This document shows, in pieces, positions 6,395 through 58,899 of a DNA stretch of 64,000 bases. Origin of the DNA: Candidatus Omnitrophica bacterium UBA6215. Its GTDB lineage: Bacteria; Omnitrophota; Gorgyraeia; Pluralincolimonadales; Pluralincolimonadaceae. The position numbers were made by a program, and so were the translations under genes. The stretch covers positions 84,879 to 148,878 of the forward strand of contig DISH01000006.1 of assembly GCA_002421665.1 (NCBI GenBank), read 5' to 3'. Position 1 is the stretch's first letter. Each line of letters opens with the position of its first letter. The notes beneath the pieces are model-generated. The model had not been told where the DNA came from. It saw nothing but the letters and a program-made list of their open reading frames with translations, and did no database searches.

Positions 6395-6415
6395 CTTTCA
6401 CCTCCGGTATGGATT

Positions 6416-6492
6416 TGGTGGCGGCGATCCGAATTGAACGGATGACATAGCGGGTATGAGCCGCTCGCTCTAACCATCTGAGCTACGCCGCC
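6416..6492 (-). tRNA. tRNA with CAU anticodon (elongator Met or lysidine-modified Ile2), encoded 3' CCA
   Basis: The minus-strand sequence GGCGGCGTAGCTCAGATGGTTAGAGCGAGCGGCTCATACCCGCTATGTCATCCGTTCAATTCGGATCGCCGCCACCA folds as a cloverleaf with a 7-bp acceptor stem, a GCTC/GAGC D-stem, an AGCGG/CCGCT anticodon stem and a GTTCAATTC T-loop. A paired G1:C72 excludes an initiator tRNA. Confidence 0.8.
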
Positions 6493-6557
6493 ATCATATT
6501 ATTTTGCGGGATAAGCTCGATTATATTATCACAAAAACCCGCATTTGGCAACAGGGT

Positions 6558-37113: not shown

Positions 37114-37437
37114 CTATTCTTTGAGCTTTACAGCCGTTCCATAAGCATATACATAACCGCTGTAATTGAAGTAATTGATACCTATTACATAATCGGCTCC
37201 AAGGTCCCTCGCAGTATCCTTTAACTTGTCGTTAAGGCCGTCGAGATTCACCTCTCCTCCGCGAGCCGAGATTATCCCTATTACTTTATATGATTCCTTC
37301 AGGTCCCCAGTGGTAAGGACTATCTCTTTCTGTTTGCCGCTGGAACCCTTATTCTTGGGCATCACCTGGGCATCAATAGTCGAAACCAATACCAGCGCAG
37401 CCAGAACGGTCGCAACTATAAATATATTACGTTTCAT
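37114..37437 (-). CDS. Small secreted YbjQ/DUF74-like protein, last gene of the pilus-like cluster
   Basis: A signal peptide is followed by LGADYVIGINY...YAYGTAVKL, which resembles the YbjQ family core. It overlaps the secretin stop by 4 bp. Confidence 0.4.
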   Translation of the reverse strand: MKRNIFIVATVLAALVLVSTIDAQVMPKNKGSSGKQKEIVLTTGDLKESYKVIGIISARGGEVNLDGLNDKLKDTARDLGADYVIGINYFNYSGYVYAYGTAVKLKE

Positions 37438-38558
37438 AGTACCGGTTCTCCTCTGGAATCAAGTACCGTAGCCGTGAGGAATATCAAAAGGTTCTTCTTC
37501 GCACTGGTACTGTGATGGGTCTTGAAAAGGTCCCCTACCAGCGGGATATCTCCCAGTACGGGCACCTTTCTCTTCGTGACATCCTCAGTCTCCCTGATAA
37601 GGCCGCCGATAACGACGGTCTCTCCGCTCTTAAGTACGACAGATGTCTGTGTGGTCCTGGTATCTATTACTGGATAGCCCAGCCCGTCGGGGAACTCAGC
37701 CGCGGCAGAGATGGGCACCTGGTCGACCAGAACGCTCACTTCCGGATGTATATCCATGGTGATTATCTTGTTGTCGCCTGAAACGGTAGGAGTTACCTCA
37801 AGCATGATCCCTGTAACCTTTTCGGCAACCTTATATACCTCGACCATGATAGGCCTGCCGGTAGTACCAATATTCGTCCTCGTGAAATCGGAAGCATAGG
37901 GTACTATATTGGCAAGCTGTATGTTGGCCATCTGCCCGGAAAGCGTAGTTACCGTAGGCGACGAGAGCAGGTTTAACTTGCCTTGCTCCTCGAGGGCCTT
38001 TATATGCATTCGTATCTGGTTACCTGCGGCCGTGAAAGTACCGAGTTGTAAATCCAAACCGCCAGCTTCGTTCGTAAGCCCAAATACACCTGCGAGGTCG
38101 TTATTGGCATCGCTTCTGTCCAACATTGAATTAGAAAACATACTCACGCCGGTATTGCTAAAACGGTTATTCTTCTCCGCGGAGCGGTTGGGTCTGTACC
38201 ATTCCCATTCCACTCCAAGTTCCTCGATGTCGGTAACATCTATCTCCACGAACCTGGCCTGGATCTTCACCTGGCTGGGGCCGGTGTCCCAAAGCTCAAT
38301 AAGGTCCCTGGCCAATGTCTGGTTGGTCGGGGTATCAGTTATTGTCAAAACACCGGTGATATCATCCATGACTATCTTCCTTTCCGGATTCTCCGGCAGG
38401 GCCTGCTGAAGATAGTCTTGAATATTGTCGGCCTCTCCGCCTGACGAACTTTCTCCTGCCCCCTCGCTTTCCGCCTGGGCAAACACGTTCGATGAAACAA
38501 AGAAGGCGAAGGCTGTTAAAATCGTTGCAAATATCAAAACCCGTCCGGTCATCTTCAT
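37434..38558 (-). CDS. Short secretin (N-domain plus secretin domain), paralog 2
   Basis: It has a signal peptide, an N3-like domain IQARFVEIDV, and the secretin C-domain motif KVPVLGDIPLVGDLFKT...KKNLLIFLTATV. Confidence 0.7.
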   Translation of the reverse strand: MKMTGRVLIFATILTAFAFFVSSNVFAQAESEGAGESSSGGEADNIQDYLQQALPENPERKIVMDDITGVLTITDTPTNQTLARDLIELWDTGPSQVKIQARFVEIDVTDIEELGVEWEWYRPNRSAEKNNRFSNTGVSMFSNSMLDRSDANNDLAGVFGLTNEAGGLDLQLGTFTAAGNQIRMHIKALEEQGKLNLLSSPTVTTLSGQMANIQLANIVPYASDFTRTNIGTTGRPIMVEVYKVAEKVTGIMLEVTPTVSGDNKIITMDIHPEVSVLVDQVPISAAAEFPDGLGYPVIDTRTTQTSVVLKSGETVVIGGLIRETEDVTKRKVPVLGDIPLVGDLFKTHHSTSAKKNLLIFLTATVLDSRGEPVL

Positions 38559-39649
38559 CTTACTGCCTCCCCTCTGGCATTGATGATGCTCGCCGTGATG
38601 AAAATAAGGAGGTTCTTCTTGCGCTGGTTCTTATAATCATATTGGAACGCCTTGCCCAGGACAGGAATATCTCCCAGTACGGGTACCTTCATCTTAGTTA
38701 TAGTCTCTTCGTCCTTTATCATGCCGCCTAACACTATCGTTTGTCCGCTGTCAACAACAACACTCGTCTGGGCGGTCCTTACATCCACAACCGGCCAACC
38801 TAACGAATCAGGGATCAGCGGCACGGCATCTGTCGCGGTGACGTTTCCAAGCTGCCCGGTCTCACCGCTCGTGGTCAACGTGGATATGCTTACCTGGTCC
38901 TTAAGGATACTTACCTCGGGATGCAGGTCTAGGGTTATGGTATTGGAGCCTTCGGTCACATAGGGAGTAGCCTCAAGGAATATCCCTATGGGTTTCTCGG
39001 CCAATGTAAGTTTATAGCTCCATATAGGATCTTCTGCCGTACCTATATTCTCAAGGGTAAAATCCGACACATAGGGCTGTGTCCTTACAACCTGGATATT
39101 GGCCATCTGTCCCGCGATCGTGGTGATCTTGGGTGAAGACAAAAGGTTGGCTTTGCCCTGTTCGGCCAACGCTCTAAGATTGGCAACAAAATAATCGCCG
39201 CCCTCCAGGATCTTAAAGAGCAGCAACTGGCTGGCATAACCACCGGAAAGCGGGAACGTACCTCCCGTAGCGGTATCCCAGACAACCTGTCCCGGTCCTA
39301 CCCTACTACCCCTGAGACCCTTATTGCTGGGGTGGCCTTCGTGCATCTCATAATATTCTACGCCAAGTTCCCAGAGATCGGTGACATCGACTTCGACAAA
39401 CCTTGTCTCTATCATGACCTGTTTAGGCCCGACCTCGTACTGCTTAATAAGGTCCTTTATGAGAGATTGGTTCGTCTTCGTGTCGGTCACTGTAAGGAGC
39501 TTCGTGGCCTGGTTGTATGTTATTTTCCTGCCGTCCTGCGGCGGCAGGCTGTTCTGGAGATACTCAGCAATGGTAAGATCTTCCGAAAACGCGATAAAGG
39601 GAAGCCCCAAGAGGGAAACGACCGCTAGAATAAGGAGATTTTTTCTCAT
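38555..39649 (-). CDS. Short secretin (N-domain plus secretin domain), paralog 1
   Basis: It has a signal peptide, the N-domain LLTVTDTKTNQSLIKDLIKQYEVGPKQVMIETRFVEV, and the secretin motif KVPVLGDIPVLGKAFQY...KKNLLIFITASI. Confidence 0.7.
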   Translation of the reverse strand: MRKNLLILAVVSLLGLPFIAFSEDLTIAEYLQNSLPPQDGRKITYNQATKLLTVTDTKTNQSLIKDLIKQYEVGPKQVMIETRFVEVDVTDLWELGVEYYEMHEGHPSNKGLRGSRVGPGQVVWDTATGGTFPLSGGYASQLLLFKILEGGDYFVANLRALAEQGKANLLSSPKITTIAGQMANIQVVRTQPYVSDFTLENIGTAEDPIWSYKLTLAEKPIGIFLEATPYVTEGSNTITLDLHPEVSILKDQVSISTLTTSGETGQLGNVTATDAVPLIPDSLGWPVVDVRTAQTSVVVDSGQTIVLGGMIKDEETITKMKVPVLGDIPVLGKAFQYDYKNQRKKNLLIFITASIINARGEAVR

Positions 39650-39651
39650 GT

Positions 39652-40767
39652 CTATTCCTGTTTGGTCTCGAATTCCTTCAGTTTAACTTCCCTGGTCTTG
39701 CGTTCCGGATATTTGAGCTTGTAGGTCCTGGTTACCAAGTCTTCTCTCTGTATTACGGATTTGCTTGATACGTAGACATAATTCGGTTCTACTTTATATG
39801 CTAATTGCGTTGTCTTGAAAGCTATGTCCAATACATCAAGAAGGGGCATGGGAGTAGCCGTGCTCAAGGAAATCTTTATGGGGCTGTCTTTCGTAAGGTT
39901 TGCAAGCTCCCTTTCGTCGACAACAATTGTAACGCCCGTCATCTCCATCAACTGTCGGATCAAGTCCTGTATATCCGCATCGGTTACTGAAATCGCCGGA
40001 ACCATTACGCTGCGCATCTTGTCGACCAGGGCCTTTTTCGCTTCCTGTTCAGCTCTTTCGGCCTCAGATATAACTTCTTCTATCTGAACCTCTTCTTTAG
40101 CCGGAGGCGTAGGAGGCAACCAGCTCCTGTCTACGTCCCGCAGCGAAGCCTGTTCCGCGGTTTCCTTTTCCTCGCTTATGACCTGTCTATCTTTTATTAT
40201 ATCCTTGCGCTCCGCAAGCGTAGATTTTTCCCTGAGATAATAGTTTTCGGCTTTCTGGGCCTTCTCAAGCCAAAGGCGGGCTTCCGAATCATTCGGATTT
40301 GCCGCAAGAGCAGTCTCAAAATCGCTTACTGCCGCGGAATACTGTTTATTGACATAATTAGCCTTACCTCTCTTTACCATGGAACCCGTTACCGTTCCAG
40401 GTACGTCCTTAACTATCCCTTCCTTGCATAACTCAACGTAATGGGCCGCAGACTTGTTCCTGGGATCCATCTGTACGATCTTCTCGAACATCTGCTGGGC
40501 AGTCTCGTAATTTTTGGCTTCGTATTCTTTTTTAGCTTGGTTGAAGAGGTCTGAAATAACGGTTTTCCGTTCGCTCTTCTTTTGCTTTGCGAGGTCCTGG
40601 GCTATTATCTTGGCCTCGACGGAATCATCGGAATACGCTGAAGTACTTGCTGCGCGGGCTTCGCTTCCAGAGAAATAAAACAATGAGATAATAAAGAACA
40701 AATTAAAAGTCAGGCAAATACAAAAAAACGGCAGTACCGTTCTTTTAACCCCATTGGTAATATCCAT
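39652..40767 (-). CDS. Membrane-anchored TPR protein with a C-terminal STN / secretin-N0-like domain (pilotin or MshN/PilF-like)
   Basis: It has an N-terminal TM, TPR-like repeats (AKKEYEAKNYETAQQMFEKIVQMDPRN...) and a C-terminus ISLSTATPMPLLDVLDIAFKTTQLAYKVEPNYVYVS resembling STN/N0 domains. Confidence 0.45.
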   Translation of the reverse strand: MDITNGVKRTVLPFFCICLTFNLFFIISLFYFSGSEARAASTSAYSDDSVEAKIIAQDLAKQKKSERKTVISDLFNQAKKEYEAKNYETAQQMFEKIVQMDPRNKSAAHYVELCKEGIVKDVPGTVTGSMVKRGKANYVNKQYSAAVSDFETALAANPNDSEARLWLEKAQKAENYYLREKSTLAERKDIIKDRQVISEEKETAEQASLRDVDRSWLPPTPPAKEEVQIEEVISEAERAEQEAKKALVDKMRSVMVPAISVTDADIQDLIRQLMEMTGVTIVVDERELANLTKDSPIKISLSTATPMPLLDVLDIAFKTTQLAYKVEPNYVYVSSKSVIQREDLVTRTYKLKYPERKTREVKLKEFETKQE

Positions 40768-40772
40768 TTATA

Positions 40773-41450
40773 TCATCTCCCCTTGTTAATAACCCACTCT
40801 TGATTTTGGCCGTATAATACCACACTACCCGGCTTTATGTCAAGAACTTTATAACCGTTGTACTCCTCGCCCTTCTTGACTTCGAATGTCTTGTCGTTCA
40901 TTGAGTCATATAATTTAGCTATAAGCTCTTTACTTTTAACGGGTTTCTTGTACTCAAGGATGAGCTGGCCGTCTCTGTTTTCTGCCTTGATCAGTTTGGA
41001 GTTTATTTCCAAAATTTTGTAATCCTTAAACTTTTCCCCCTTCTTAGCAAAATATGTCTTACCCGACCAGTTGATCTGCCCTATCATGGTCCCATCCTGC
41101 TTCTGGATGAAGCCGTTATACATAAAAGGCAGATTGTTCGCTCCTATGGAAACGACCTTAAGCTTTTCCGGGCTGAACTGCTCGGGGGGCGCTTCCGGTT
41201 TGATAAAAATATTCCTGTCGAACAAAGGCTTATATCTCGATATCGCGAACGGTGAATTAATACCGTCGATAAGCGCGGCATATTTGTCGGTTGTATCCGC
41301 GACTTCACTGTCCTGGGCTTTCTGCGTTCCGGCCTTCTCCTCTATTAAAACATCTGATCCTTCAGGCGCAAAGAGGGATGATCCCCTCCAAAGAAAGACG
41401 AGCCATATCGCAAACAGGATCATAGTTGCTATTTTATAAACGTCCTTCAT
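40773..41450 (-). CDS. Bitopic membrane protein, putative PilP/GspC-like assembly component
   Basis: It has an N-terminal TM and a beta-rich periplasmic region. The call is based on its position between the PilO-like gene and the secretins, with no strong motif. Confidence 0.3.
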   Translation of the reverse strand: MKDVYKIATMILFAIWLVFLWRGSSLFAPEGSDVLIEEKAGTQKAQDSEVADTTDKYAALIDGINSPFAISRYKPLFDRNIFIKPEAPPEQFSPEKLKVVSIGANNLPFMYNGFIQKQDGTMIGQINWSGKTYFAKKGEKFKDYKILEINSKLIKAENRDGQLILEYKKPVKSKELIAKLYDSMNDKTFEVKKGEEYNGYKVLDIKPGSVVLYGQNQEWVINKGR

Positions 41451-43894: not shown

Positions 43895-45088
43895 TTATTT
43901 TCGCGCGCGCTCTAATCTTTGGCACTCTACCATATTTTCGAAGGAATCTTGTTTGATCTGCCCGTCCTTTGAAAAATCATTGGCGATCGAAAAACAAAAA
44001 TAGGCCGTCTTTGCCTTTTCGCCTTTCTCCGGCTGTTTAAGCCTCCCTGCCTTCTTCAGGAGGTCTTCTCCCTGTTTGAAGTACCGGCCGCTCAAGTCGC
44101 TTATATATGACTGGTCCTGCATCCTTAACATATAACCTGTTATGAGAGCATGGCGGGCATCGCTGGAAGGTTCGGGTCTTGTATCAAAAAACCTCTTAAT
44201 GGCGTCCCGGGCTTTCGAATCCGCCATCTTCCTGACCTGCCCTCCGGATGAAGCAGCAACAATATCGTAACATGCGACCGCAGCGATGTAATAGCCGCTC
44301 TTCCTGTCCTTGTCAACTTCTTCGGCGCGCTCTTCGTAATCTATCCCCCTGTTGATGCACTTAATAAAATATGCCTGCTTGCATTCATCCGTATCCATGT
44401 GGGAAAGGACCGATTGCATCTCCTCGGCGGCAAAAACTATTTCAGGCGGCTCCTGTAAATTGTCAAGGATCTTCGATGCCCTGAAATTCCCCCAGATCTT
44501 AGTTATCAGGCCCCTGGACCTTCCCGCATAAGATGAATCCGGGTAAAGGGAGATCACCGACTTCGCCAACTGTTCGGCCTTATAATATTCGCCCCATTTA
44601 TATTCTGTCTCCGCTACGGCAAATAGTTTTTCGGCCTCTTTTTCCTGCACAACCGCGAGGTCCTTACCCGCTTTCTCTGCAAGTTTGGGATCCAATTCCT
44701 TCGCTATCCTGTAATGCCTGTCTGCCATTTCGAAGAGACCGTTCTCCGGGGTCGCATTGTCATAACACCATTTTGCAAGCTGGAGTTGCGCGGACGCGTC
44801 ATCCGGTTTTATACCATTGACCTTCAAAAAATATATATCCTGTTTTGTATAAAGGTCTTCTTCCCGTATGTCCGATCTTACGACGTTCTTTATCCACGCT
44901 TTCGGGAAAGTGCTTGTCCCCCCGGCCTTGAGCTTTACGGTAACATGGGTATCGCTCTCGTTCACTATCTTGCCGTCCATCTTCCCTCCTCCATCCTTCA
45001 GTTCGATAACATCGGCGGACCCGGCAGGACAAGACAATACCAGGGAAGCTGCCAGCAGGACAAGAACCGGAAAACCGCGACTCGACAT
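43895..45088 (-). CDS. Secreted hypothetical protein with TPR-like helical repeats
   Basis: It has the signal peptide MSSRGFPVLVLLAASLVLSCPAGSA. I recognised no family. Confidence 0.4.
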   Translation of the reverse strand: MSSRGFPVLVLLAASLVLSCPAGSADVIELKDGGGKMDGKIVNESDTHVTVKLKAGGTSTFPKAWIKNVVRSDIREEDLYTKQDIYFLKVNGIKPDDASAQLQLAKWCYDNATPENGLFEMADRHYRIAKELDPKLAEKAGKDLAVVQEKEAEKLFAVAETEYKWGEYYKAEQLAKSVISLYPDSSYAGRSRGLITKIWGNFRASKILDNLQEPPEIVFAAEEMQSVLSHMDTDECKQAYFIKCINRGIDYEERAEEVDKDRKSGYYIAAVACYDIVAASSGGQVRKMADSKARDAIKRFFDTRPEPSSDARHALITGYMLRMQDQSYISDLSGRYFKQGEDLLKKAGRLKQPEKGEKAKTAYFCFSIANDFSKDGQIKQDSFENMVECQRLERARK

Positions 45089-45096
45089 CTCTCCTC

Positions 45097-47610
45097 CTAT
45101 TTACAATATACCACCTTAGCGGGCGGTAAATAAGTCATCGTAACATCTTCCAGGACGGGGGTCTCCGCGTAGCCGGCATCGGAACTTGATAACGTCGCTA
45201 TAAAAGCTGCGCCGGAAGACACGCCTCCTATCGGACCATCCTTTGAAACGCCGATGGTGCCTATACCCCTGTCAACCTGCATCGACACCCGTTCTGAAAC
45301 TTCGCTGGCCGTAGAGGGCAGAGTCAGTGTCCATGAGATAGTGCCCCACCTGACATTTTCGGAGGTTATCATGTTCGGACAGCGATAAGAACCCGAGGAC
45401 GGTATTATCCTTAGTTCATCCCATTTAGGCGAAGCATTGTTGCCATAAAGCGCAGGATACCATTGCGTAAGCTGCCAGTTGTTCAAGTCATTGTTGTTGA
45501 TCGTCCAAAAACCGTAACGGTCGCGCTTGAGCTCGTTAGAGGCGTCATTATGGAACGGGATCATTACATAGTTCGTTGTCGCCGGGCTGAAACCGACGCT
45601 TCCGAGAAACCATCCGTTGTTGAAATTATAATACCTGTGCCAACCCTGGCCTACGGCAAGGTAGACGCGGTAATTCGGGCTCTGGGTTGCGCTTACCACC
45701 AGTTTAAGCGTCTCCTTCACGGGGCAGACACCGTGGAATTGTTCGAATCCCTGGTCCCCGGATGAGACGGTATAGTCGAAATAGTGGTTGACCTGCGGAT
45801 CGGACAGGCCGTAAAGGTAACCTATATTATATGTGCGTTCGTTCCTAAGCGACGGGGAGTTATTCCACATATGAAGCAATATCTTGCTGTCCGCAAAATC
45901 CTTTCCTTCGCGGGAAGACGCCGGTTCGTTCGTCGCAGAGTCACGCTCGACCGTCCAGCCGGGCCGGGTTATATCCCTTCTCGGGGAATATTCAAAACCC
46001 CAGTTCTGTGTCCAGAGTTTTCCCTTGACCTGGTTCGCCCATGTAAAATCAACATGTCCGGTATCTTCCCAGCCGTCGCCGCCCGGGGAAGGCCTCAGCG
46101 ACACCCTGAAAGAAAAAGCATTGCCGAATGTCCATCTGCTGTTATCCGACAATGCAAACTTAGGCCATCCTTCCCCCCACATCTCACAGTCCCCGTCGGA
46201 ATCGCTGTCAGATATATAAAGCGTGGCGTTCTGTTGCTGCCAATTCGACCAGCTGTACCCGGTCTTGTTCGTATTATCGTTGTCCTCGTCAAAGTTGTCC
46301 CAGAACCCAAGCTTGAGCGAATTGGGAACGGTTGTGTAATCAGAAGCGTAGATAAGGCCCTGGTCATCCGTAGATACCACCGGACAGGAATTCAGCCAGG
46401 TTACCCTTGAAAAAACCGGCTGGTCCAGGACGCCGTTGCCGTTCTTGTCCTCGCCCGGATCCAGCAGGCCGTTATAGTTCGCGTCCTCTCCGCGGAACTG
46501 TTCCTTCGTCGTGTAACTGACCACTTCAAATATCTTTACGACCGCCAGGGTCTCTTGCGCTGAACCAGTCCTGTCAACAGGGTCTGAAAGATCGCCGTCA
46601 GAATTCGTATCTATACCGACAGTCCCGGTAGAACATATTTCAAAGTAGCCCCCGGGATTGAAACAGAAATCCGTGGTATACAAAGAAGGCTTCACCCTGT
46701 TGGGATTGGCATTGGCTTTTATATTTATCCTGTCGATGGAACTAAGGGACGGGGTTATGGAAACATTATCTATAAAATCGTCGAATCCCCCTGATGCAGC
46801 CGTCCCGTTCCAGCTCCTGAAAGGCACAGAGGAACGTTGTGTCACGATCGCAGCGGCAAGAGCCGATGCCTGCGCATCCGTTACTATTCCCATCAGGACT
46901 GCCCGGAGAACCTCCTGGCCGGCGGTATTAATATTGACGGGGGCTTTCCTCTGGTAACTTCCGGGGCCTGTCATCCCCGGAGAAGTGCTGTCCTCGCTGT
47001 TCTCATCTATGTACCCGTAGACACAGATATAATCCCTGACCACGGCATACTTTGAGGCATCCCATCCGGAAGATGTCATTACCTCTTCCTTGGTAGCGAA
47101 CGGCCTGTTGGTATTATCGGCTATGGCCTCTCCATCTGCCCGGGCCAGGCCCAGTACGACCGCAAGATTGCCAAGAATGGTCCTTAAATTTGGGTTCGTA
47201 TCGTTTACATTGACCTGCGAAGCAGTATCCGTCACCTTCAATGAATATACGGCTATGCTGTTCCTCCCGATATCACCTAAAGAACCGCTGGTACCGTTGC
47301 CCGCTATCCCGTCACGAAGGTCGAACGACGGGTTGGAAGCGCTTGTGTAATTCCAGTCGCAGGAAGCCGACGGAAGCCCGATAAAATCGCTCGCGGAGAG
47401 TTCCCTTAAATACACCACTGCCAGGCTGATCCCGGCGTCCGAGGCCTGTTTGGCTTTCATATTCTCTATGTGGTTGGACGATGCTTTGAGATCAAAAGTC
47501 ATATTAAAAGCAAAAGAGGTGGCTATCAGCGCGACGAGAGCAAGCACTCCCACCGTCACGATAAGAGCTACGCCTTTATTGTCTCTTCTTCTGATAAGGT
47601 CTTTGGTCAT
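45097..47610 (-). CDS. Giant GspK-like minor pseudopilin (837 aa), paralog 2
   Basis: It has a prepilin-like N-terminus RRRDNKG|VALIVTVGVLALVALIATSF without Glu+5, which is GspK-like. It also has the helix-hairpin-helix motif PVNINTAGQEVLRAVL and a C-terminal motif TPVLEDVTMTY shared with the 951-aa paralog. Confidence 0.6.
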   Translation of the reverse strand: MTKDLIRRRDNKGVALIVTVGVLALVALIATSFAFNMTFDLKASSNHIENMKAKQASDAGISLAVVYLRELSASDFIGLPSASCDWNYTSASNPSFDLRDGIAGNGTSGSLGDIGRNSIAVYSLKVTDTASQVNVNDTNPNLRTILGNLAVVLGLARADGEAIADNTNRPFATKEEVMTSSGWDASKYAVVRDYICVYGYIDENSEDSTSPGMTGPGSYQRKAPVNINTAGQEVLRAVLMGIVTDAQASALAAAIVTQRSSVPFRSWNGTAASGGFDDFIDNVSITPSLSSIDRINIKANANPNRVKPSLYTTDFCFNPGGYFEICSTGTVGIDTNSDGDLSDPVDRTGSAQETLAVVKIFEVVSYTTKEQFRGEDANYNGLLDPGEDKNGNGVLDQPVFSRVTWLNSCPVVSTDDQGLIYASDYTTVPNSLKLGFWDNFDEDNDNTNKTGYSWSNWQQQNATLYISDSDSDGDCEMWGEGWPKFALSDNSRWTFGNAFSFRVSLRPSPGGDGWEDTGHVDFTWANQVKGKLWTQNWGFEYSPRRDITRPGWTVERDSATNEPASSREGKDFADSKILLHMWNNSPSLRNERTYNIGYLYGLSDPQVNHYFDYTVSSGDQGFEQFHGVCPVKETLKLVVSATQSPNYRVYLAVGQGWHRYYNFNNGWFLGSVGFSPATTNYVMIPFHNDASNELKRDRYGFWTINNNDLNNWQLTQWYPALYGNNASPKWDELRIIPSSGSYRCPNMITSENVRWGTISWTLTLPSTASEVSERVSMQVDRGIGTIGVSKDGPIGGVSSGAAFIATLSSSDAGYAETPVLEDVTMTYLPPAKVVYCK

Positions 47611-47701
47611 TGCCGCAAAAAATATACCTTATAAAAAATGTTAATTCAAGAGTAAAAAATACCCACGAGGGCATAACAGCATAAAAACATTACGTCGCAG
47701 C

Positions 47702-48601
47702 TTATTTCCTTCTGCCCGCCGCAAAGGCACCGATATCGCCGCGGGAACCGTCGGGGTCGTTATATTGCTTGTCCGGGTCCCCTGAATCTATACATGGAGA
47801 GCCTGCTTTAAGGCTATAATCATCCTTGGACGGGTTCATGAATTTTGGATCCGAAATCAGGTCATGCTCTCCCTTTTTGCAATCGATAAAATCCTTAACA
47901 TCCCAAAATATGTTATACTCCAGCTTAAGATAGACATCTTCACGGGGTTTCTGCCAGTATTTAGCCGCGTCTTTCTCGGATACGTCATTTGGGTTCGCCA
48001 TAATGGGGGGTTTTGTCACGAATATACCTACCCTGTTATTATAGAAGATACTATTCCTTATAGTAAGGTCTATGGGACCCTGCCAAAGCTGCAGCCCGTA
48101 TCCGCCGTTGATGATATCGCAGTTCGAGATGACCGCATTCTCCACCGAGCTTATTTTCAGGCACGTGGATAGGTTCTTCCCCCTCAATATGCAGTTCTTC
48201 ATCTTCAGGCCGTTCATGCCATTGACGGACAGCGGAAATCCGTCAACTTCTATCGTCAGGGCCTCCAGAGTAAGGTTGTTTATACTGCCGTTAACGGAAA
48301 CTATTGACAGGCCTTCCCGGCCCAATTTAATTGTCGTCCTGTCGGCTCCGTGTCCAGCCAAACGGGTATTACCCTTGAAGATCGTGGAGCCGTCCGCAGA
48401 GAAATCCCCCTCGCCCAGAAATATCGTATCGCCCGGCAGCGACTTTTCGCAGGCTTCTTTTATCGTCTTGCAGTCACCCGGAACGCGTATTGTATATTTA
48501 TCTGCGATCGCCGCAATAGAAACCGCATTGACCGCTAAAAAACCCGTCAGGACAGCGGACAACAAACGCATTTTACCCATATCGATAATCTTCCGGTTCA
48601 T
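47702..48601 (-). CDS. Secreted right-handed beta-helix repeat protein (pectin-lyase fold-like)
   Basis: It has a signal peptide, and repeated motifs NCILRGKN...ISNCDIINGGYGLQL...IRNSIFYNNRVGIFV typical of parallel beta-helix repeats. The start may be an internal Met. Confidence 0.5.
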   Translation of the reverse strand: MNRKIIDMGKMRLLSAVLTGFLAVNAVSIAAIADKYTIRVPGDCKTIKEACEKSLPGDTIFLGEGDFSADGSTIFKGNTRLAGHGADRTTIKLGREGLSIVSVNGSINNLTLEALTIEVDGFPLSVNGMNGLKMKNCILRGKNLSTCLKISSVENAVISNCDIINGGYGLQLWQGPIDLTIRNSIFYNNRVGIFVTKPPIMANPNDVSEKDAAKYWQKPREDVYLKLEYNIFWDVKDFIDCKKGEHDLISDPKFMNPSKDDYSLKAGSPCIDSGDPDKQYNDPDGSRGDIGAFAAGRRK

Positions 48602-51453
48602 CGTTGATAGAATACCGTTGTAAAAGGTTTATGGTAGATAACCGTGACATCCGTAAGTACCGGGGTCACGCTGCTCGCCGAATAATCATTTGGATCAAGC
48701 GCGCTCGTTGCCAACAGGGCCTTATACTGGAACTTCCTCCCGGAGATAGCCGAGACCGAGTCTCCGCTTGCATAAGTGGAGACGAAGCTGTCCGAGGACG
48801 ATGCCCTCGCATACATGGTTATCGATGTGCTGGTCGGTATTATAGCATTCCATGTTATGGTATCCCATGATATCCCTGTGTTATCTGTCGGTAATTTCGT
48901 GATCAAAGGAGCCGATACGATATACCCCTTCGGGTATATGATCCTGACGTCATCGAACTGGTTGACGCATTCTGAGTCGGAACCCCACCAATCGGCATTC
49001 CTCTCTGCCAACTCTTCTATGAAAGCATTATTCGCGTGAGTGCTCCAGAACTGGGTAAAATCGGCATAATAAAGGTTATTGCCCCTTAATTTTACCACTC
49101 CTTCTTTTGAAGCACTGCCGGCTACGCGCAGAGCACCCTGCACGAAACCGGAGCCCGCCGAAGTGGTATAAGTATAATAGGGCCTGTAAGACGTCCCTAC
49201 CCCCACGGCTGCCAATATATAATACCGGGAATCATCCGGCCATATCGCATATGTCGCATTCCCTACGATTTTACCGGGCAAATTAGTCTCGTTCATATCC
49301 ACCGAATAAAGATCGTTATCGCCATCCTTCACAAGGGTATAATAGCCCCCGGTGGCTTTGGTCCCCTCGTAAGGCTCCTCCTTAAGAAAGAGATAGCCTG
49401 TTAACCATGAAGGACTGTAAGCGGGGGTGGGCTGTCCCGGGTTCGTCAGGCGCTTGCTCGGGGGTTTATGCCATACCCAGCTACCGGTCTGCTGCTGGCC
49501 GTCATCATAGACATAACATCTGGCAAATATATCATATCCCAACTCGGCGCTTGGGGCGTAATAATTGCCGTTGACTTCTGCGCTCCTCTCTTCGGGATAA
49601 CGCTGGACTGTGGTTCCTTCCACGATATCGGTATAATAACCTTTCATATCAAGCCTCAAGCTGTACGTTCCGTCAAAACCCTGCCTTAGGGAGGTATCGC
49701 CGAAACTCAGGTCCCATCTCGAATCAGTTCCCCAGATCACATCGGTAGGGATGTCGAAAGTCTTGCCATCCGGAAAAGTATAACTTACGGCAGGCGTGAC
49801 TCCCGTGATCTTGGCCAGATATCCGCCTCTCCATGTTACGACACTGTAGGCTACATCGTCATCAAAATCATCCCAATAACCGAGTTTGACAGAATCATAA
49901 CATTTCGTATAACCGGAGGTCTCCCATGCCATGCAGGAACCGTTCCACGAGTCGGCGCTTATAGGGCAGGAGTCCAGCCAGGTTACGTTCCTGACCTCGC
50001 CATCGCTCAGATCTCCGTAATCCGAGAACCAAGCTGCATAAAACTCGGCCCTGGTAGTCTGCGTCATGGTATTAAAAACTTCCACGACGGATACCATCTG
50101 CCTCTCGGCAAGCGTGGAGCCATCCGCCCTCTTCGCTTTACCCGTAGCCACTATTTTGATTATCCCCCCGGAATTGTAATCCGCGCCAAGGGTCGATGCG
50201 GGAACGCGGTCTGATGTGGTCCATTTATCAAGTATCCTGCCGTAATACGAAGTAGGCAGGTAAGCAAAATAATCGGCTGGGACATAATCTTCCGCGCCAA
50301 GGGCATTCCATTTCAGTTCCAAGGTATTCTGGTTCTCATAATTGTAGAAATCGAACCTTATCGGATGCCACCCTCCGCGGGTAAACTTCACGGAACCGCT
50401 GGTAAGCGCTCCGGAACTCCAGGTGCCCATAGACCTCTCCGTCCAATCCGCTATAAGCTGCCTCCCGTCTATAAAAAGCCTGCATCCCTGTTCGCTGCGC
50501 ATCCTGAACGTTATGTCCTGGTTTATCTTGTTATCGGGGATATAGATGAAACCCGTAAATACCATGCCATAGCGTTCCATCCCGTATTTATTTTGCCAGT
50601 CGGTTATGACATATCCCCCGGAAAATTCCGCGTCATGCGCTTCTGCCCACCCCGAATTATCTCCGTCTGTCCCCGGGAAAGTCCCTGAAGGCGGGTATGG
50701 GCTCGAAGCAGCAGCCTTCGCCTCTTTCATAGCACCCAGATCTATGACCTTTCCTGAATAATAATCGAGGGAAAGTATGGTGTCCCTGCTCCAGGTCTCC
50801 CTGCTGTTAGTATAACCTTTGCATATCAGGCCGCCTTGTATTAACGGCGCATATATCGTAATGAGGCCTTTTATGCTATTGTATTTCCCGTCATCCTTGA
50901 GGACCAGACGAACCTCTTCTATAGTGGCAAAGGGCGCATTCTTGGCGTTTGTCTCGTCGCCGGCTGCCGAGACACGACCCGTAGAGGTCAGCAGCTGCGT
51001 CGTTGCGCTGGAGTCCTGGTCGACATAATCGATTATCTTCGCAATATCGTCATAGCTCAGGCCTGCGGCAGCAAGCGTTTCGATCCACGGGTAATCGGTC
51101 TCGTCGATATTGTTGATATTGATCACTTGGTCCTGTCTTTCGACATAAACCTGGCAGCTCCCTCCCGGAAGGTCTACCTCGGTACCGGGAGAAGAATAAT
51201 TTGCCGCTATATCAGCCATTAGCGCGCTGTAACCGTTACTTGCCGCCCAGCTGCGTATTTCCGCAACAGCGCGGTCGATGCCTGCCCGAGCCATCTCCTC
51301 AGCCTGGGTCTGGTTGACGAAATTCTGGACTGCCTTATACTCCATCTGCATGTTTATGGCGAAACTCGTGGCTATCATAGCCACGAGCGCAAGTATGCCT
51401 ACGGCTATTATAAGGGCAACGCCTTTCTTTTGTTTTAAGACCGCCTTATCCAC
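48598..51453 (-). CDS. Giant GspK-like minor pseudopilin (951 aa) carrying a PA14 domain, paralog 1
   Basis: It has the N-terminus KQKKG|VALIIAVGILALVAMIATSF without Glu+5, a GspK-like motif VININNIDETD...NAPFATIEEV, and a PA14-like segment GFIYIPDNKINQDITFRMRSEQGCRLFIDGRQLIADW...WHPIRFDFYNYENQNTLELKW. Confidence 0.6.
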   Translation of the reverse strand: MDKAVLKQKKGVALIIAVGILALVAMIATSFAINMQMEYKAVQNFVNQTQAEEMARAGIDRAVAEIRSWAASNGYSALMADIAANYSSPGTEVDLPGGSCQVYVERQDQVININNIDETDYPWIETLAAAGLSYDDIAKIIDYVDQDSSATTQLLTSTGRVSAAGDETNAKNAPFATIEEVRLVLKDDGKYNSIKGLITIYAPLIQGGLICKGYTNSRETWSRDTILSLDYYSGKVIDLGAMKEAKAAASSPYPPSGTFPGTDGDNSGWAEAHDAEFSGGYVITDWQNKYGMERYGMVFTGFIYIPDNKINQDITFRMRSEQGCRLFIDGRQLIADWTERSMGTWSSGALTSGSVKFTRGGWHPIRFDFYNYENQNTLELKWNALGAEDYVPADYFAYLPTSYYGRILDKWTTSDRVPASTLGADYNSGGIIKIVATGKAKRADGSTLAERQMVSVVEVFNTMTQTTRAEFYAAWFSDYGDLSDGEVRNVTWLDSCPISADSWNGSCMAWETSGYTKCYDSVKLGYWDDFDDDVAYSVVTWRGGYLAKITGVTPAVSYTFPDGKTFDIPTDVIWGTDSRWDLSFGDTSLRQGFDGTYSLRLDMKGYYTDIVEGTTVQRYPEERSAEVNGNYYAPSAELGYDIFARCYVYDDGQQQTGSWVWHKPPSKRLTNPGQPTPAYSPSWLTGYLFLKEEPYEGTKATGGYYTLVKDGDNDLYSVDMNETNLPGKIVGNATYAIWPDDSRYYILAAVGVGTSYRPYYTYTTSAGSGFVQGALRVAGSASKEGVVKLRGNNLYYADFTQFWSTHANNAFIEELAERNADWWGSDSECVNQFDDVRIIYPKGYIVSAPLITKLPTDNTGISWDTITWNAIIPTSTSITMYARASSSDSFVSTYASGDSVSAISGRKFQYKALLATSALDPNDYSASSVTPVLTDVTVIYHKPFTTVFYQR

Positions 51454-51462
51454 TCTATACCT

Positions 51463-52212
51463 CTACTGTACGCGTATGAAATCCGTAAAAGTCCTCTTCT
51501 GGCTCCCGTCGCGGCTTTGTATCGTTATTGAAACCGCTACCGCGTTGGGCAAACCATCCGGGACCTTCGCGTTGTTCCCGTCGTCATAATTCTGGCTGGG
51601 GCTTCCATCAAGGAGGTCCAGTCCGGAATTCCACTCGCTCGCCGTCGTTGCCGGAAGCCCCCCGACGGCGGACTTATAATAATATGTGAACTGCAAGTCC
51701 GTAACATTGCGCGCTATGATATCATCGGAAAAAGTCCCTGAACTGTTGTTTGAAAAATCGTATACCACCGGGACCGTGCTGCCATTAAAATATTCGAAAT
51801 GCCTCATTAGGCAGTTATCGTCACGAAGCCAGTAACCTATTTCGCACAGGTCCTGCATACCGGGGTTATCTTCAACCGGCGCCACAAGGAACAACTCATC
51901 GGCGACAGAACCGGATTTAATTATATAGGTGCCGCCCTTGTCGTTGCCCTGGAACTTTGTCCAATAGCCGGTATTATCCGATTTCTGGTAGAGTACGGCA
52001 GAGGGTATCTCCTTGCGCATAAGTTCCAGCGCGAACCTGGCATTCTGGTATATATCCAGCAATGTCTCGGATTTACGCCATGAATCGAGGGCCCCCCTGA
52101 AGACCGTGAACAGCGATAGAACAACTATAGAGAAGATAACAGAAACTACCAGTATCTCCACAAGGGTGAGTCCTGCCCTGCAGGCCTTTAAATTCTTACC
52201 TGTCCGCGACAT
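51463..52212 (-). CDS. Type IV prepilin-like minor pseudopilin (GspJ/PilW-like)
   Basis: It has a class III signal MSRTGKNLKACRAG|LTLVEILVVSVIF with Glu+5. Confidence 0.6.
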   Translation of the reverse strand: MSRTGKNLKACRAGLTLVEILVVSVIFSIVVLSLFTVFRGALDSWRKSETLLDIYQNARFALELMRKEIPSAVLYQKSDNTGYWTKFQGNDKGGTYIIKSGSVADELFLVAPVEDNPGMQDLCEIGYWLRDDNCLMRHFEYFNGSTVPVVYDFSNNSSGTFSDDIIARNVTDLQFTYYYKSAVGGLPATTASEWNSGLDLLDGSPSQNYDDGNNAKVPDGLPNAVAVSITIQSRDGSQKRTFTDFIRVQ

Positions 52213-52549
52213 TTATGGTAAAACCTCTCTGAAAACTCTTATTGCCCTGCCCCCAGCCGACAGTGCAGATCACCTGCCTTAAATTATCCACGGAGGTAGT
52301 CGAGACCGTCTGGGTCCAGGTATATGCGGGATCTGTGAACGTGCCTGAGGTAGTGCCGAGACTGGGAAAACCGTTGTTCCTTATCCGTTCAAAATGCTCG
52401 TGGGCGAATATCGTGGCCTGGGTGGCGCTTACCGACCTTCGGGCGGAATCGAAACCTATCGGGAAAAGGGACAGTATCCCCACCAGCCCTATCGCGAGGA
52501 TAGAAAGAGAGATGATTATTTCGATGAGGGTAAATCCGCTCCTCTTCAC
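52196..52549 (-). CDS. Type IV prepilin-like minor pseudopilin (GspI-like)
   Basis: It has MKRSG|FTLIEIIISLSILAIGL with Glu+5, and at 117 aa has a GspI-like size. Confidence 0.65.
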   Translation of the reverse strand: MKRSGFTLIEIIISLSILAIGLVGILSLFPIGFDSARRSVSATQATIFAHEHFERIRNNGFPSLGTTSGTFTDPAYTWTQTVSTTSVDNLRQVICTVGWGQGNKSFQRGFTINVADR

Positions 52550-52577
52550 GCTGCGCCCTCGCTTTTACCGGCCCGGC

Positions 52578-53075
52578 TTATCTGGTCCAGTTCGTTACGT
52601 TGTCCGTGCCTCCGACCACCCTGTCCGGACCATACGAAATAATATCGACGTAATAACCGCCGTGCCCTGAAGTATCGGGATTAGTATAAGTCAATGCCGT
52701 GCCCCAGGCATCGATTATCGTGCTGCCTCCGGTAAGGTCATTGTCCTTGAATGTCATATAAGGTCCCGACCAGTTGGTAGTAGGAAGCGTGTAAGTACCG
52801 GTACCTATAACATAGTTACCGGTATTGTTCACAAGGCAGTTATACAAGTTAGTATTGCCGCTTCGCGGATAACCGCCAAGATCAGCCTGGAACATCCCAA
52901 TACCGGTCTCTATCGCGGCTATCATCGCCTTTGTGCGGGCTATCATCGCCTTCTGCCTTGCGGTCTGGGCGGCCGCCGCCACCAATCCCGCCAACAGCAA
53001 TATTATAGTCATGACGACCACAAGTTCTATTATGGTGAAACCTTTCTTCCTGTTCGTCCTAACCATATTAACCAC
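52578..53075 (-). CDS. Major pseudopilin / type IV pilin (GspG-like)
   Basis: It has MVNMVRTNRKKG|FTIIELVVVMTIILLLAGLVAAAA with Glu+5, and a GspG-like length and periplasmic domain. Confidence 0.75.
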   Translation of the reverse strand: MVNMVRTNRKKGFTIIELVVVMTIILLLAGLVAAAAQTARQKAMIARTKAMIAAIETGIGMFQADLGGYPRSGNTNLYNCLVNNTGNYVIGTGTYTLPTTNWSGPYMTFKDNDLTGGSTIIDAWGTALTYTNPDTSGHGGYYVDIISYGPDRVVGGTDNVTNWTR

Positions 53076-54333
53076 CTCCTAAAGCTGTTACGAGCTGGAA
53101 GAGCGGCAAGAACATGGCTATTACTATGAACCCGACTATCATACCCAGCCCGATGATCAAAAACGGCTCTAGCAACGACATCAAACCCGTTACAGTGACA
53201 TCGACCTCTTCATCATATACATCTGCGACCTTCAACAACATCTGGTCCAAGGCACCTGTCTCCTCCCCTACGGAGATCATGTTAACGGCCATCGCCGGGA
53301 AGAGCCCTGCCTTAAGCAGGGGTTTGGCTATCGTCTCCCCTTCCCTTACCGCATCGTGTACCACCACTATGGAACGGGCCATCGCCTCATTGCCGGTAGT
53401 GTCCTTCGAGACCATAAGGGATTGCAATATAGGCACACCGCTTGACAACAGCGTTCCGAGCGTCCTGGAGAAACGGGCGATGGCAATCTTCCTTAACAAC
53501 TGGCCCATTACCGGTATCTCCAACTTACCCTTATCAATCAGAAGTTTTGTCACAGGCAAACTGTATAGGACATTCCATAGGACGATGAGTAATACTACTA
53601 AGCCTATGCCGATATACCATCTGCTCCTCGCAAAATCGCTGACCACAAGGAGGACTTTGGTCATTACCGGAAGTTCTACGTTCATTTCTTTGAATATCTG
53701 CAAAAATTTGGGGACGATAAACGTTATAAGAAAACCCAGTACCGATAGAGCCATGGTAAGAACGAGGGCGGGATAGACCATGGCCGATTTTATCCTTCCC
53801 TCCAATCTTTGGGATTTTTCGGCAAACTCCGCAAGACGGGTAAGTACCACTTCGAGCACACCGCCGGCTTCACCCGCCTTTACCGTATTTACATACAGGG
53901 GCGGGAACGCCTTGGGGAATTTTGAAAGCGCTTCGGAAAAAGAGCTGCCGCCTTCAACCTGCTCGGCAAGCCCGCGGATAGTAGTCTTCAATATCCCCGA
54001 CTTCTCTTGCCTTTCAAGGACATACAAGGCGCGGACAAGGGGCAGACCGGAACCTATAAGGGTAGCCAGCTGCCTGGTAAACACGGTTATCTGCTTGGCG
54101 CTGACACCTCCGAAAGACAGGCTTAAAGCTGATTTCGCCGGCTTGGGGCCGCCGGGTATCTCCCTGTTCCTTAAGGGAGATCCGTCATTTTTATCCTTCT
54201 CTTCATTGATACTTATGGGATAAAGGCCCTTCTGGCGCATCTGCTCCATGGCATCCTGATTGCCGGAAGCCTCGAGCCTGCCTTTACTCTCCTTGCCGTC
54301 CTTGTCTATAGCGACGTAATTGAAGATGGCCAT
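53068..54333 (-). CDS. Inner-membrane platform protein GspF/PilC family
   Basis: It has two T2SF repeats and three TM helices. A strong RBS GGGGGAG precedes the ATG. Confidence 0.85.
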   Translation of the reverse strand: MAIFNYVAIDKDGKESKGRLEASGNQDAMEQMRQKGLYPISINEEKDKNDGSPLRNREIPGGPKPAKSALSLSFGGVSAKQITVFTRQLATLIGSGLPLVRALYVLERQEKSGILKTTIRGLAEQVEGGSSFSEALSKFPKAFPPLYVNTVKAGEAGGVLEVVLTRLAEFAEKSQRLEGRIKSAMVYPALVLTMALSVLGFLITFIVPKFLQIFKEMNVELPVMTKVLLVVSDFARSRWYIGIGLVVLLIVLWNVLYSLPVTKLLIDKGKLEIPVMGQLLRKIAIARFSRTLGTLLSSGVPILQSLMVSKDTTGNEAMARSIVVVHDAVREGETIAKPLLKAGLFPAMAVNMISVGEETGALDQMLLKVADVYDEEVDVTVTGLMSLLEPFLIIGLGMIVGFIVIAMFLPLFQLVTALGGG

Positions 54334-54361
54334 TAATTTTATCTCCCCCTTCTATATTATA

Positions 54362-54390
54362 AATATACCTTATACAAAGGTCTTTGTCAA
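54362..54390 (-). promoter_or_regulatory. Possible internal sigma70-like promoter TTGACA-N17-TATATT upstream of the GspF gene
   Basis: On the minus strand the sequence reads TTGACAaagacctttgtataaggTATATT and lies in the 69-nt gap between the ATPase and platform genes. Confidence 0.25.
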
Positions 54391-54402
54391 AGGCTCAAAA
54401 AA

Positions 54403-57995: not shown

Positions 57996-58391
57996 CTATT
58001 TCCTGGTAATAATGAACACCGTCAAAAGCACTATCAGGATAAAGACGAGGATATAGAAATCGTTCAGATAAACAAAATCCCTGACTTTATCGAAAAGCGA
58101 ATACCTTTGCCTGCTTTCGGGCTCACTCGTCGGGGAGAGATGGTAGATGGGGACGGACTGGTGTTTTAGCACCTTAAGGCGGCTCTTAAGGGCCGCGACC
58201 TGCCCCTTCCTGAGCCTTACGAACTCCCCTCCTATCCTGTAGGCCGGGATCTTGCCTTCGGCCACAAAAGACTTTACATCTTCCTCGTCCAACTCGAGTA
58301 TGCTTGCAGCTTCCTCGATGGTTATAAGCCTTTCGCGGTCGCTTTTCCCGTCCGGAGCTCTATTTAATTCTCTCCGAGCTGATCCATTCAT
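57996..58391 (-). CDS. Membrane-anchored HTH (excisionase/MerR-type HTH_17-like) DNA-binding protein
   Basis: It has LITIEEAASILELDEEDVKSFVAEGKIPAYRIGGEFVRL (helix-turn-helix) and a C-terminal TM helix FYILVFILIVLLTVFII. Confidence 0.5.
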   Translation of the reverse strand: MNGSARRELNRAPDGKSDRERLITIEEAASILELDEEDVKSFVAEGKIPAYRIGGEFVRLRKGQVAALKSRLKVLKHQSVPIYHLSPTSEPESRQRYSLFDKVRDFVYLNDFYILVFILIVLLTVFIITRK

Positions 58392-58899
58392 CTATTTTCG
58401 CTTTGTCAAAATGAAGTTTATCGCCTTCCCTGATAGACGGAAGTTTTCCGTTAGACGCCCAATCCGACACGACGGAGACATCCACTTCCAGATACCTGGC
58501 GACCTCATCCGTATCCATCAACTGCGCTCCGGATTGGGAAACGCTCTTTATCCCGGAAGTCATCTGGCAGTTCCCGTTCAAGACGGAACCCTTGCCCACC
58601 TCAAGGAGGGGAGTGCGTATATTGCCGTCCACCCTGGCTGGTGAAATAAGCTTCAGGGATTTCTTCGCGATCACTTCGCCCGTTACCCGGCCGGCTATCG
58701 TGATCTCGTCACCGGTTATATTGGCATTGACGAAAGCCTTCTCTCCTATGGTCAAAGTCCCCTTCGTGTCCAGGGTACCTTCGAACCTGCCGTTTATCTG
58801 CAGGTTCACGGGGTCTTTGAACGACATGGTGCCTTGCATGCTGGCGTCTACGTCCAATACCTTCTCTTCCACCTTCTTGTTCTTGCCTATCATCGCCAA
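58360..58899 (-). CDS. Bactofilin fused to a C-terminal HTH_17-like DNA-binding domain
   Basis: It has the bactofilin beta-helical repeats ...DGNIRTPLLEVGKGSVLNGNCQMT (cf. BacM ...GNIHTPRLTIEEGAVFNGNIRM). The C-terminus reads DTDEVARYLEVDVSVVSDWASNGKLPSIREGDKLHF. Confidence 0.65.
   Translation of the reverse strand: MAMIGKNKKVEEKVLDVDASMQGTMSFKDPVNLQINGRFEGTLDTKGTLTIGEKAFVNANITGDEITIAGRVTGEVIAKKSLKLISPARVDGNIRTPLLEVGKGSVLNGNCQMTSGIKSVSQSGAQLMDTDEVARYLEVDVSVVSDWASNGKLPSIREGDKLHFDKAKIDEWISSERIK

Follow-up and report, generated by a model that had tools for sequence, protein, structure and literature searches.

The DNA analysed here, hereafter the window, is a stretch of 64,000 nucleotides from contig DISH01000006.1 of Candidatus Omnitrophica bacterium UBA6215 (assembly GCA_002421665.1). 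The subject of this report is a group of three adjacent genes within it, coding for a tetratricopeptide repeat (TPR) protein with a secretin-type N0 domain, named TPR-N0, and for two minimal secretins, SecA and SecB. Secretins form the outer-membrane gate common to type II (T2SS) and type III (T3SS) secretion systems, type IV pili and filamentous phages; the prevailing view is of a homo-oligomer with a single kind of multidomain subunit. In the window, the trio and a following gene for a 107-aa protein form the 3' end of a long operon similar to those of type IV pili and T2SS, and every gene in that part of the window lies on the minus strand; the three open reading frames (ORFs) had been outlined in an initial annotation made from the sequence alone, and their coordinates proved exact (Table 1). 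Comparative analyses strongly support a new arrangement, in which a secretin is split inside its ring-building N domain, the pore half is duplicated and all three pieces are kept together.

Domains of SecA, SecB and TPR-N0

Pfam analysis revealed that both SecA and SecB match the whole of the Secretin profile (PF00263, positions 1-168 of 169, cut-off 27.5 bits), with E=4e-38 and 131.1 bits for the former and E=2e-43 and 148.4 bits for the latter, and both retain the KVPVLGDIP...KKNLLIF end; domain matches of this kind far exceed chance. The two proteins share 46% identity over 348 aa in a pairwise alignment, and each shows by inspection its own signal peptide (MRKNLLILAVVSLLGLPFIAFS/ED in SecA, ...ILTAFAFFVSSNVFA/QA in SecB). 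SecA carries in a barrel loop a Thr/Ser/Gly-rich insertion that is missing in SecB and varies in length among SecA orthologues. Among PDB sequences, SecB matches GspD-type proteins and PilQ from the N3 domain to the end (XcpQ, 1.2e-26; V. cholerae PilQ, 1.2e-24), while RcpA is only a weak match to SecB (2.5e-13). All of the 120 best SecB homologues are 339-396 aa long, indicating that the minimal size is a family trait and not a truncation.

The initial annotation had described the two proteins as minimal secretins with one N domain each. This description holds for the secretin domains but only in part for the N domain, which is incomplete. Each protein gives a single weak Secretin_N match (5e-6 for SecB, 2e-4 for SecA), which starts at profile position 11-14 of 69; thus, both secretins are without strand beta1 of the beta-alpha-beta-beta-alpha N domain. 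Indeed, mature SecA begins essentially at helix alpha1 ('LTIAEYLQNSL'), and before alpha1 SecB has only an acidic Gly/Ser-rich stretch. No N0 domain was detected by Pfam on the SecA or SecB chain; N0 and a beta1-like motif are found on TPR-N0.

As for family assignment, SecA matches the NCBIfam models for GspD (5.9e-47) and Amuc_1098_fam (4.9e-41). However, the two secretins score 179.1 and 160.4 bits against the T2SS GspD model TIGR02517, whose cut-off is 351, covering profile positions 290-600 only, and 170.4 and 127.4 bits against the type IVa pilus PilQ model TIGR02515, whose cut-off is 284. Since the curated cut-offs of GspD, PilQ and Amuc_1098 are not reached and no N0 is present on the same chain, SecA and SecB belong to the secretin superfamily as a split, duplicated variant, outside the GspD, PilQ and Amuc_1098 equivalogs. 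In public databases these genes are labelled 'hypothetical protein' or 'TPR repeat protein'.

In TPR-N0, Pfam places TPR_19, TPR_2 and TPR_1 above threshold, while STN (1.5e-3) and GspD_N0 (2.1e-3) remain below it. An AlphaFold2 (AF2) model based on a 48-row alignment, with a mean predicted local distance difference test (pLDDT) score of 76, shows a helix at residues 11-37, TPR/helical repeats, a long helix at 161-216 and a beta-alpha-beta-alpha-beta-alpha-beta-beta domain at 260-335; the last ~29 residues are disordered in this model of TPR-N0 alone. In a Foldseek comparison with the PDB, the non-TPR matches among the 50 rows listed are only the N0 domains of Legionella LspD (7pmp, root-mean-square deviation 2.6 A over 86 columns) and Neisseria PilQ (4ar0), and a profile of residues 232-371 matches among PDB sequences solely N-terminal fragments of GspD/XcpQ, at N0 (E=2.4e-4). 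The predicted fold, the Foldseek matches and the profile matches therefore identify the C-terminal region of TPR-N0 as an N0 domain, as the initial annotation had suggested from its STN/N0-like sequence. The profile searches that had been proposed as a check thus reveal a full Secretin domain in both secretins and a weak STN/N0 similarity in the TPR protein.

The N-terminal hydrophobic helix of TPR-N0 comes with a possible A-x-A cleavage site ('ARA/AS'), a segment that is absent in the orthologues of loci L011 and L013. Inspection of MDITNGVKRTVLPFFCICLTFNLFFIISLFYFSGSEARAAS revealed no lipobox; TPR-N0 was also considered as a TPR lipoprotein pilotin of the PilF/PilW/Tgl/TadD type, and this assignment was discarded for the missing lipobox and the presence of the N0 domain.

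Gene fission inside the N domain and its conservation

An exhaustive phmmer search with residues 250-371 of TPR-N0 produced 71 representatives, and among them single-chain secretins whose parts follow the same order are P0241 (MFH0839317.1, Candidatus Omnitrophota; 707 aa, TPR-STN-Secretin), P0239 (893 aa, AMIN-TPR-N0-Secretin_N-Secretin), P0220 (924 aa, an unsplit secretin) and P0207 (399 aa, N0-N-degenerate secretin). The locus of P0241, L019 (Omnitrophota GCA_043800345.1), is orthologous to the window: it contains genes for an ATPase, GspF, GspG, pseudopilins, PilMN, an Amuc_1100-like protein, one 707-aa secretin, PolA, GlgA, CoaE, Rho, L31, RF1 and PrmC, while downstream of the module in the window polA, glgA, coaE, a GGDEF gene, rho, prfA (RF1) and prmC are found. 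These common flanking genes indicate that the one secretin gene of L019 corresponds to TPR-N0, SecA, SecB and the 107-aa gene of the window.

The same partition is evident with the NCBIfam equivalog model of the Amuc_1098 family (NF042912; 805 positions, curated cut-off 750 bits). TPR-N0 matches profile positions 159-370 of 805 (E=1.6e-12, 46.4 bits), whereas SecA and SecB match the C-terminal part, at 662-804 (4.9e-41 and 140.6 bits; 1.8e-36 and 125.5 bits, respectively), and unsplit P0241 matches the model with 3e-68. None of the three proteins reaches the 750-bit cut-off on one polypeptide, each covering part of the profile, and the order TPR, N0, N and secretin typical of Amuc_1098 is found in the three only collectively. 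Since the orthologous gene of L019 is unsplit and the Amuc_1098_fam profile is shared out over TPR-N0 and SecA/SecB, an ancestral single secretin, with signal peptide, TPR, N0, one N domain and secretin domain, was very probably split and its pore half duplicated. The split secretin considered in the initial annotation is thus borne out by the unsplit ortholog, by the shared profile and by the position of the break inside the N domain.

Two further groups of relatives deserve mention. P0207 (L020:210-1409) is without the KVPxLGDIP region, matches the Secretin profile at 7-127 only and lies beside genes for a VWA-domain protein and an AbiEii toxin, outside any pilus operon. P0208, P0214, P0222 and P0223 are very long (905-1655 aa) and contain, in tandem, 4-7 N0/STN-like stretches that are related to the domain of TPR-N0.

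The break can be located by comparison with the unsplit proteins. In P0241, P0239, P0220 and P0207, N0 is followed by the motif 'L[IVT]T[RK]xYxL', a low-complexity linker of 20-90 residues, the elements alpha1-beta2-beta3-alpha2 and the secretin domain; in a joint alignment, the split families fall on either side of this linker. The AF2 model of P0207 (mean pLDDT 84), whose top Foldseek matches are all secretins, displays 'ITKTYK' at 131-136 as a confident strand (pLDDT ~88), followed by a low-confidence linker (137-160), a helix (161-168), two strands (176-180 and 185-190) and a second helix (192-205), which is the canonical topology of an N domain. Thus, the gene is broken in the beta1-alpha1 linker of the N domain.

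The C-terminal tail of TPR-N0 contains the motif 'VTRTYKLKY', near-invariant in 16 orthologues and kept among 48 homologues down to ~33% identity, and the unsplit proteins carry an equivalent motif right after N0 ('ITKTYKLEFG', 'TTRIYRLSHG', 'ETRIYHLRKG', 'ITKVYSLKHA'). When the tail is joined in silico to the SecB N domain, the Secretin_N score rises from 31.2 to 40.9 bits and coverage extends to positions 1-69, compared with 30.1-35.9 bits for 11 shuffled tails. It is somewhat likely that the strand of the tail can act in trans to complete the N domain of a secretin. Some results point the other way: one shuffled tail likewise gave a full-length Secretin_N match (35.9 bits), and the gain with the SecA N domain is small (24.2 to 26.5 bits, +2.3). 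The strand would pair with the N domain and not with N0, as suggested by topology and by the disorder of the tail in the model of TPR-N0 alone. A second tail segment, 'RKTREVKLKEF', was also evaluated as a second beta1, which would give one strand for each paralogue, and it was rejected: its gain is within the shuffle range, it is unstructured in P0207 and it is absent in L023.

The initial annotation had proposed to check the tandem secretin pair for conservation in related genomes, and the trio is indeed conserved at every locus examined. Across 16 Omnitrophota species of GTDB (SecB identity 56-97%) the genes always come in one order: PilMN, 254-aa protein, 225-aa protein, TPR-N0, SecA, SecB and 107-aa protein. 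The trio is also present in L017, where SecB is 42% identical, in L022 and in all metagenome loci whose downstream sequence is long enough, among them the deep branch L039-L048 (TPR-N0 identity 33-36%), and at most loci the junctions between its genes measure -4 to +6 bp. Among the ~30 loci examined, none is split with one secretin and none has lost a paralogue; the single-secretin loci seen (L019, L021, L050 and L051) are the unsplit ones only. L023 is highly diverged and has other flanking genes: an AMIN-TPR-2xN0 protein (6001-7701) ending in 'TTRFFRLRH' is followed by two secretins of 326-334 aa that start at alpha1, and then by BamD- and LptE-like genes. This locus may represent the same split, either arisen independently or of very old date.

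In a midpoint-rooted neighbour-joining tree of 131 minimal secretins, all the upstream genes group in an A clade and all the downstream genes in a B clade, with each contig contributing one member to each; conservation among orthologues is about equal for the two paralogues (identity 54-97% and 56-97%). The two clades and this conservation indicate that the duplication is old and that both copies are under constraint. Frame breaks were observed in SecB of L024 (4752-5920), a contig whose aligned SecB and TPR-N0 segments are 100% identical to those of the window and whose public annotation reports a truncated 311-aa protein (P0003), and in SecA of L027 (4408-5522); they probably arose as assembly or indel errors where the sequence is of low complexity.

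Operon context and comparison with known systems

The gene content of the operon indicates that the locus probably codes for the module that forms the outer-membrane channel in a type IV pilus/T2SS-like machine of the Planctomycetes-Verrucomicrobia-Chlamydiae (PVC) type, similar to Akkermansia Amuc_1098-1101, in a Candidatus Omnitrophota bacterium. The closest homologues of SecB come from Candidatus Omnitrophota metagenome-assembled genomes. Type IV pili of Omnitrophota are thought to underlie a host-attached or predatory lifestyle (PMC10066038); papers on this phylum mention type IVa pili, not secretins (PMC10066038; bioRxiv 10.64898/2026.06.07.730766).

Table 1. Position of the secretin module, its parts and neighbouring features in the window
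Feature	Position	Strand	Description and basis
107-aa secreted protein	37114..37437	-	Weak YbjQ/BhsA/McbA-like matches; start overlaps SecB stop by 4 bp
SecB, 374 aa	37434..38558	-	Signal peptide, acidic Gly/Ser-rich linker, incomplete N domain, secretin domain; B clade
SecA, 364 aa	38555..39649	-	Signal peptide, incomplete N domain (alpha-beta-beta-alpha), secretin domain; A clade
SecA-specific insertion, ~aa 257-274	38828..38881	-	Thr/Ser/Gly-rich, barrel loop; pairwise and orthologue alignments
TPR-N0 protein, 371 aa	39652..40767	-	Detached N-terminal half of a PVC-type PilQ secretin; Pfam, AF2, Foldseek, PDB profile, NCBIfam
TPR-N0 C-terminal tail, aa 343-371	39655..39741	-	Motif LVTRTYKLKY-x-RKTxxVKL; proposed missing beta1 of the secretins' N domain
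TPR-N0 N0 domain (STN-like), aa 255-335	39763..40005	-	Secretin-type; AF2, Foldseek, PDB profile
TPR-N0 helical/TPR region, then long helix, aa 48-216	40120..40626	-	Pfam TPR and AF2
TPR-N0 hydrophobic helix, aa 11-37	40657..40737	-	N-terminal; signal anchor or long signal peptide (AF2 and inspection)
225-aa protein	40773..41450	-	PilP position; assigned by gene position alone; synteny conserved
Amuc_1100-like protein, 254 aa	41447..42211	-	PilO position; NCBIfam Amuc_1100_fam E=2.7e-6
PilM-PilN fusion, 545 aa	42214..43851	-	Amuc_1101 family; Pfam PilM_2 1e-34, PilN 6.5e-9; NCBIfam Amuc_1101_fam 1.1e-82
Upstream part of operon	43895..57856	-	397-aa TPR-like, two GspK/PilX-like, beta-helix protein, two pseudopilins, GspF/PilC, two ATPases (Pfam)
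Giant GspK/PilX-like minor pseudopilin, 837 aa	45097-47610	-	Pfam
Secreted right-handed beta-helix protein	47702-48601	-	Between the two giant GspK/PilX-like genes
Giant GspK/PilX-like minor pseudopilin, 951 aa	48598-51453	-	With PA14; Pfam
GspE/PilB-type ATPases, 583 and 570 aa	54403-57856	-	Adjacent, full-length, each with MshEN N-terminal domain
Stand-alone GGDEF protein, 172 aa	31854-32372	-	Between coaE and rho
HTH_17 protein	57996-58391	-	Directly upstream of pilus operon
Bactofilin fused to HTH_17	58360-58899	-	HTH_17 DNA-binding domain; directly upstream of pilus operon

A single set of platform genes (PilMN, Amuc_1100-like, 'PilP' and GspF), upstream of the trio, and a single N0 protein are present for the two secretins. 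Homologues of the 254-aa protein in L017 and L022 carry PF28028. The 225-aa protein was examined as PilP/GspC-HR and the assignment was not supported, with zero matches in Pfam, NCBIfam and PDB sequences. At L019:8732-9964, the Amuc_1100-like protein and the one in the PilP position are apparently encoded by one 410-aa gene, where the window has two (254 and 225 aa), and this may be a second fission/fusion difference between both lineages. One of the two pseudopilins of the operon is GspG-like according to Pfam, and the giant GspK/PilX-like proteins, together with the beta-helix protein encoded between them, suggest a bulky adhesive or enzymatic pilus tip. Neither of the two ATPases is a short PilT-like retraction ATPase. 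The 107-aa gene is found with the split secretin module at nearly every locus, at identities that fall to 29-42%, but neither the unsplit orthologous locus L019 nor L023 has it; its product could be a new accessory or pilotin-like factor. In the surroundings, the GGDEF gene is absent from the same position in L017 and L019.

Among known systems, the closest is that of Akkermansia muciniphila, whose PilQ, Amuc_1098, is 907 aa long, has BamD-like TPRs at its N-terminus and a secretin domain at its C-terminus, and was located at the outer membrane by immuno-electron microscopy (PMC4960237). Once the three proteins of the window are summed, the order TPR, N0, N and secretin is the same, and Amuc_1101-like PilM(N) and Amuc_1100-like neighbours are found in both cases. 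However, the Amuc_1098-type PilQ is one gene and one polypeptide, whereas here the break falls within the N domain, two copies of the pore half exist and the scores are far below 750 bits. Unsplit P0241 is similar for phylum, operon, downstream genes and TPR, STN and Secretin domains, and its N0 is followed by 'LTTRIYRLSHG', a long linker and the rest of the N domain; conversely, it is encoded by a single gene in single copy, without the 107-aa downstream gene.

GspD and PilQ provide the best matches among solved structures, from N3 through the secretin domain, but they form homo-oligomeric barrels of one chain each, with N0-N1-N2-N3 in GspD and AMIN-N0-N1 in PilQ. No AMIN domain was found by Pfam in the proteins of the window, while one is present on the distant N0 protein of L023. 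Hetero-complexes around a secretin are normal in these systems, given their accessory proteins AspS/PulS, PilF/Tgl and TsaP; PDB entry 6ve2, for instance, is entitled as a PilQ 14-mer with a TsaP heptamer. pIV of phage f1 (N0-N3-secretin, 15-mer, PDB 7ofh), which is among the sequence and fold matches, has the same minimal content once the C-terminus of TPR-N0 is added to SecA or SecB, although it is one chain, homo-oligomeric and without a TPR region.

A secretin function distributed over two genes is found in the rhizobial T3SS, where rhcC1 is what remains of an N-terminal part and rhcC2 encodes a Tad-like secretin that was acquired separately (PMC4500985). That system differs from the present one in belonging to a T3SS and in RhcC2 not being the other half of the same gene, with no duplicated pore paralogues and no evidence for a break within a domain. 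An RhcC1/RhcC2-type origin was therefore rejected for the window, where the cluster is of type IV pilus/T2SS type and both halves derive from one Amuc_1098-type gene. Literature searches on secretins and pili of Omnitrophota and on hetero-oligomeric, tandem or split secretins found nothing comparable, RhcC1/RhcC2 being the sole two-gene precedent found, and no report of a conserved pair of pore paralogues.

Possible assembly of the three-part secretin

SecA and SecB would probably be exported by the Sec system, inserted in the outer membrane and form a gated beta-barrel, possibly in one mixed ring, for example an alternating one. TPR-N0 would probably re-attach through the conserved strand at its C-terminus, donated to a secretin subunit whose N domain is incomplete, so that the N0 of TPR-N0 would connect the pore to the inner-membrane platform formed by PilM/N, the Amuc_1100-like protein and 'PilP', while its TPR part could act in a pilotin-like manner. 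In other systems, N0 contacts partners of the PilP/GspC type.

A mixed ring of SecA and SecB is plausible, although its probability is put a little short of even. It is suggested by the fact that one platform gene set and one N0 protein serve two pore genes, that the unsplit orthologous machine needs one secretin only, and that fission and duplication strictly co-occur in tightly coupled genes; moreover, paralogues derived from a homomer usually still co-assemble. Several points weigh against it. Each secretin barrel in the PDB match lists is made of one protein type, literature searches yielded no report of a mixed secretin barrel and, to our knowledge, none is known; the two PilB/GspE-type ATPases of the operon could equally serve two separate pores, SecA has its specific loop insertion, and the ~30 loci examined are a sample, some of them redundant. 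The PDB barrels of one protein type, the two ATPases and the loop insertion would favour a different organisation, in which SecA and SecB are separate homo-oligomeric pores with different jobs, such as pilus extrusion versus protein secretion or DNA uptake, on a common platform and with TPR-N0 as common adaptor: the variable loop fits specialisation, and the paralogues are just 46% identical. Nevertheless, this organisation is considered rather unlikely, as it would leave one platform set and one N0 protein for two pores, the orthologous unsplit machines have a single secretin, and the constant co-occurrence of split and duplication, with junctions that are probably translationally coupled, is not required for independent pores. 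The two stacked rings envisaged in the initial annotation are unlikely as well, since both paralogues have the same architecture, including a full membrane-inserting secretin domain. It is also improbable that only one paralogue forms the channel and that the other plays an accessory part outside the pore, for example in assembly or as a ring in the periplasm or at the gate, or is a copy undergoing degeneration. Degenerate secretin-like relatives do exist, as exemplified by P0207, but SecA and SecB both match the whole Secretin profile with E<=4e-38, keep the conserved end and are about equally conserved among their orthologues.

Concerning TPR-N0, it might be an evolutionary remnant that works independently, as a pilotin-like TPR factor or a subunit of the alignment complex, with no re-association of its tail with the secretins. 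N0 domains occur on non-secretin proteins and multi-N0 proteins exist. TPR proteins serve as pilotins of type IV pili and Tad systems (PMC4960237), and the rhizobial remnant RhcC1 persists beside an unrelated secretin (PMC4500985). This possibility is nonetheless judged unlikely, because the tail motif hardly varies even where overall identity falls to ~33%, it again forms the extreme C-terminus of the L023 protein despite the high divergence of the latter, it is the counterpart of the strand missing from both secretins, and TPR-N0 shows no lipobox by inspection. Finally, a single secretin gene broken by frameshifts or assembly errors has a negligible probability: two metagenome contigs do have local frame breaks, but the same set of three genes is found at ~30 loci that were assembled independently, with identities of 33-100%, both secretins begin at a start codon and signal peptide of their own, and their degree of identity (46%) indicates that they are not fragments of one ORF.

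A more specific and more tentative version of the mixed ring is an obligate three-protein secretin, in which SecA and SecB would alternate in one even-numbered ring and the TPR-N0 strand would complete the N domain of one paralogue only. If true, the alternating ring would be the first hetero-oligomeric secretin barrel, and donation of the strand to one paralogue would produce a periplasmic N0/TPR ring with half the symmetry of the pore.

Annotation tools designed for a single protein of PilQ or GspD size will miscall these Omnitrophota systems. The retention of three pieces across deep divergence makes them a test bed for how N0 and the N domain couple the pore to the inner-membrane platform, for whether two subunit types can build a secretin barrel, and for how the symmetry mismatch between pore and platform is handled.

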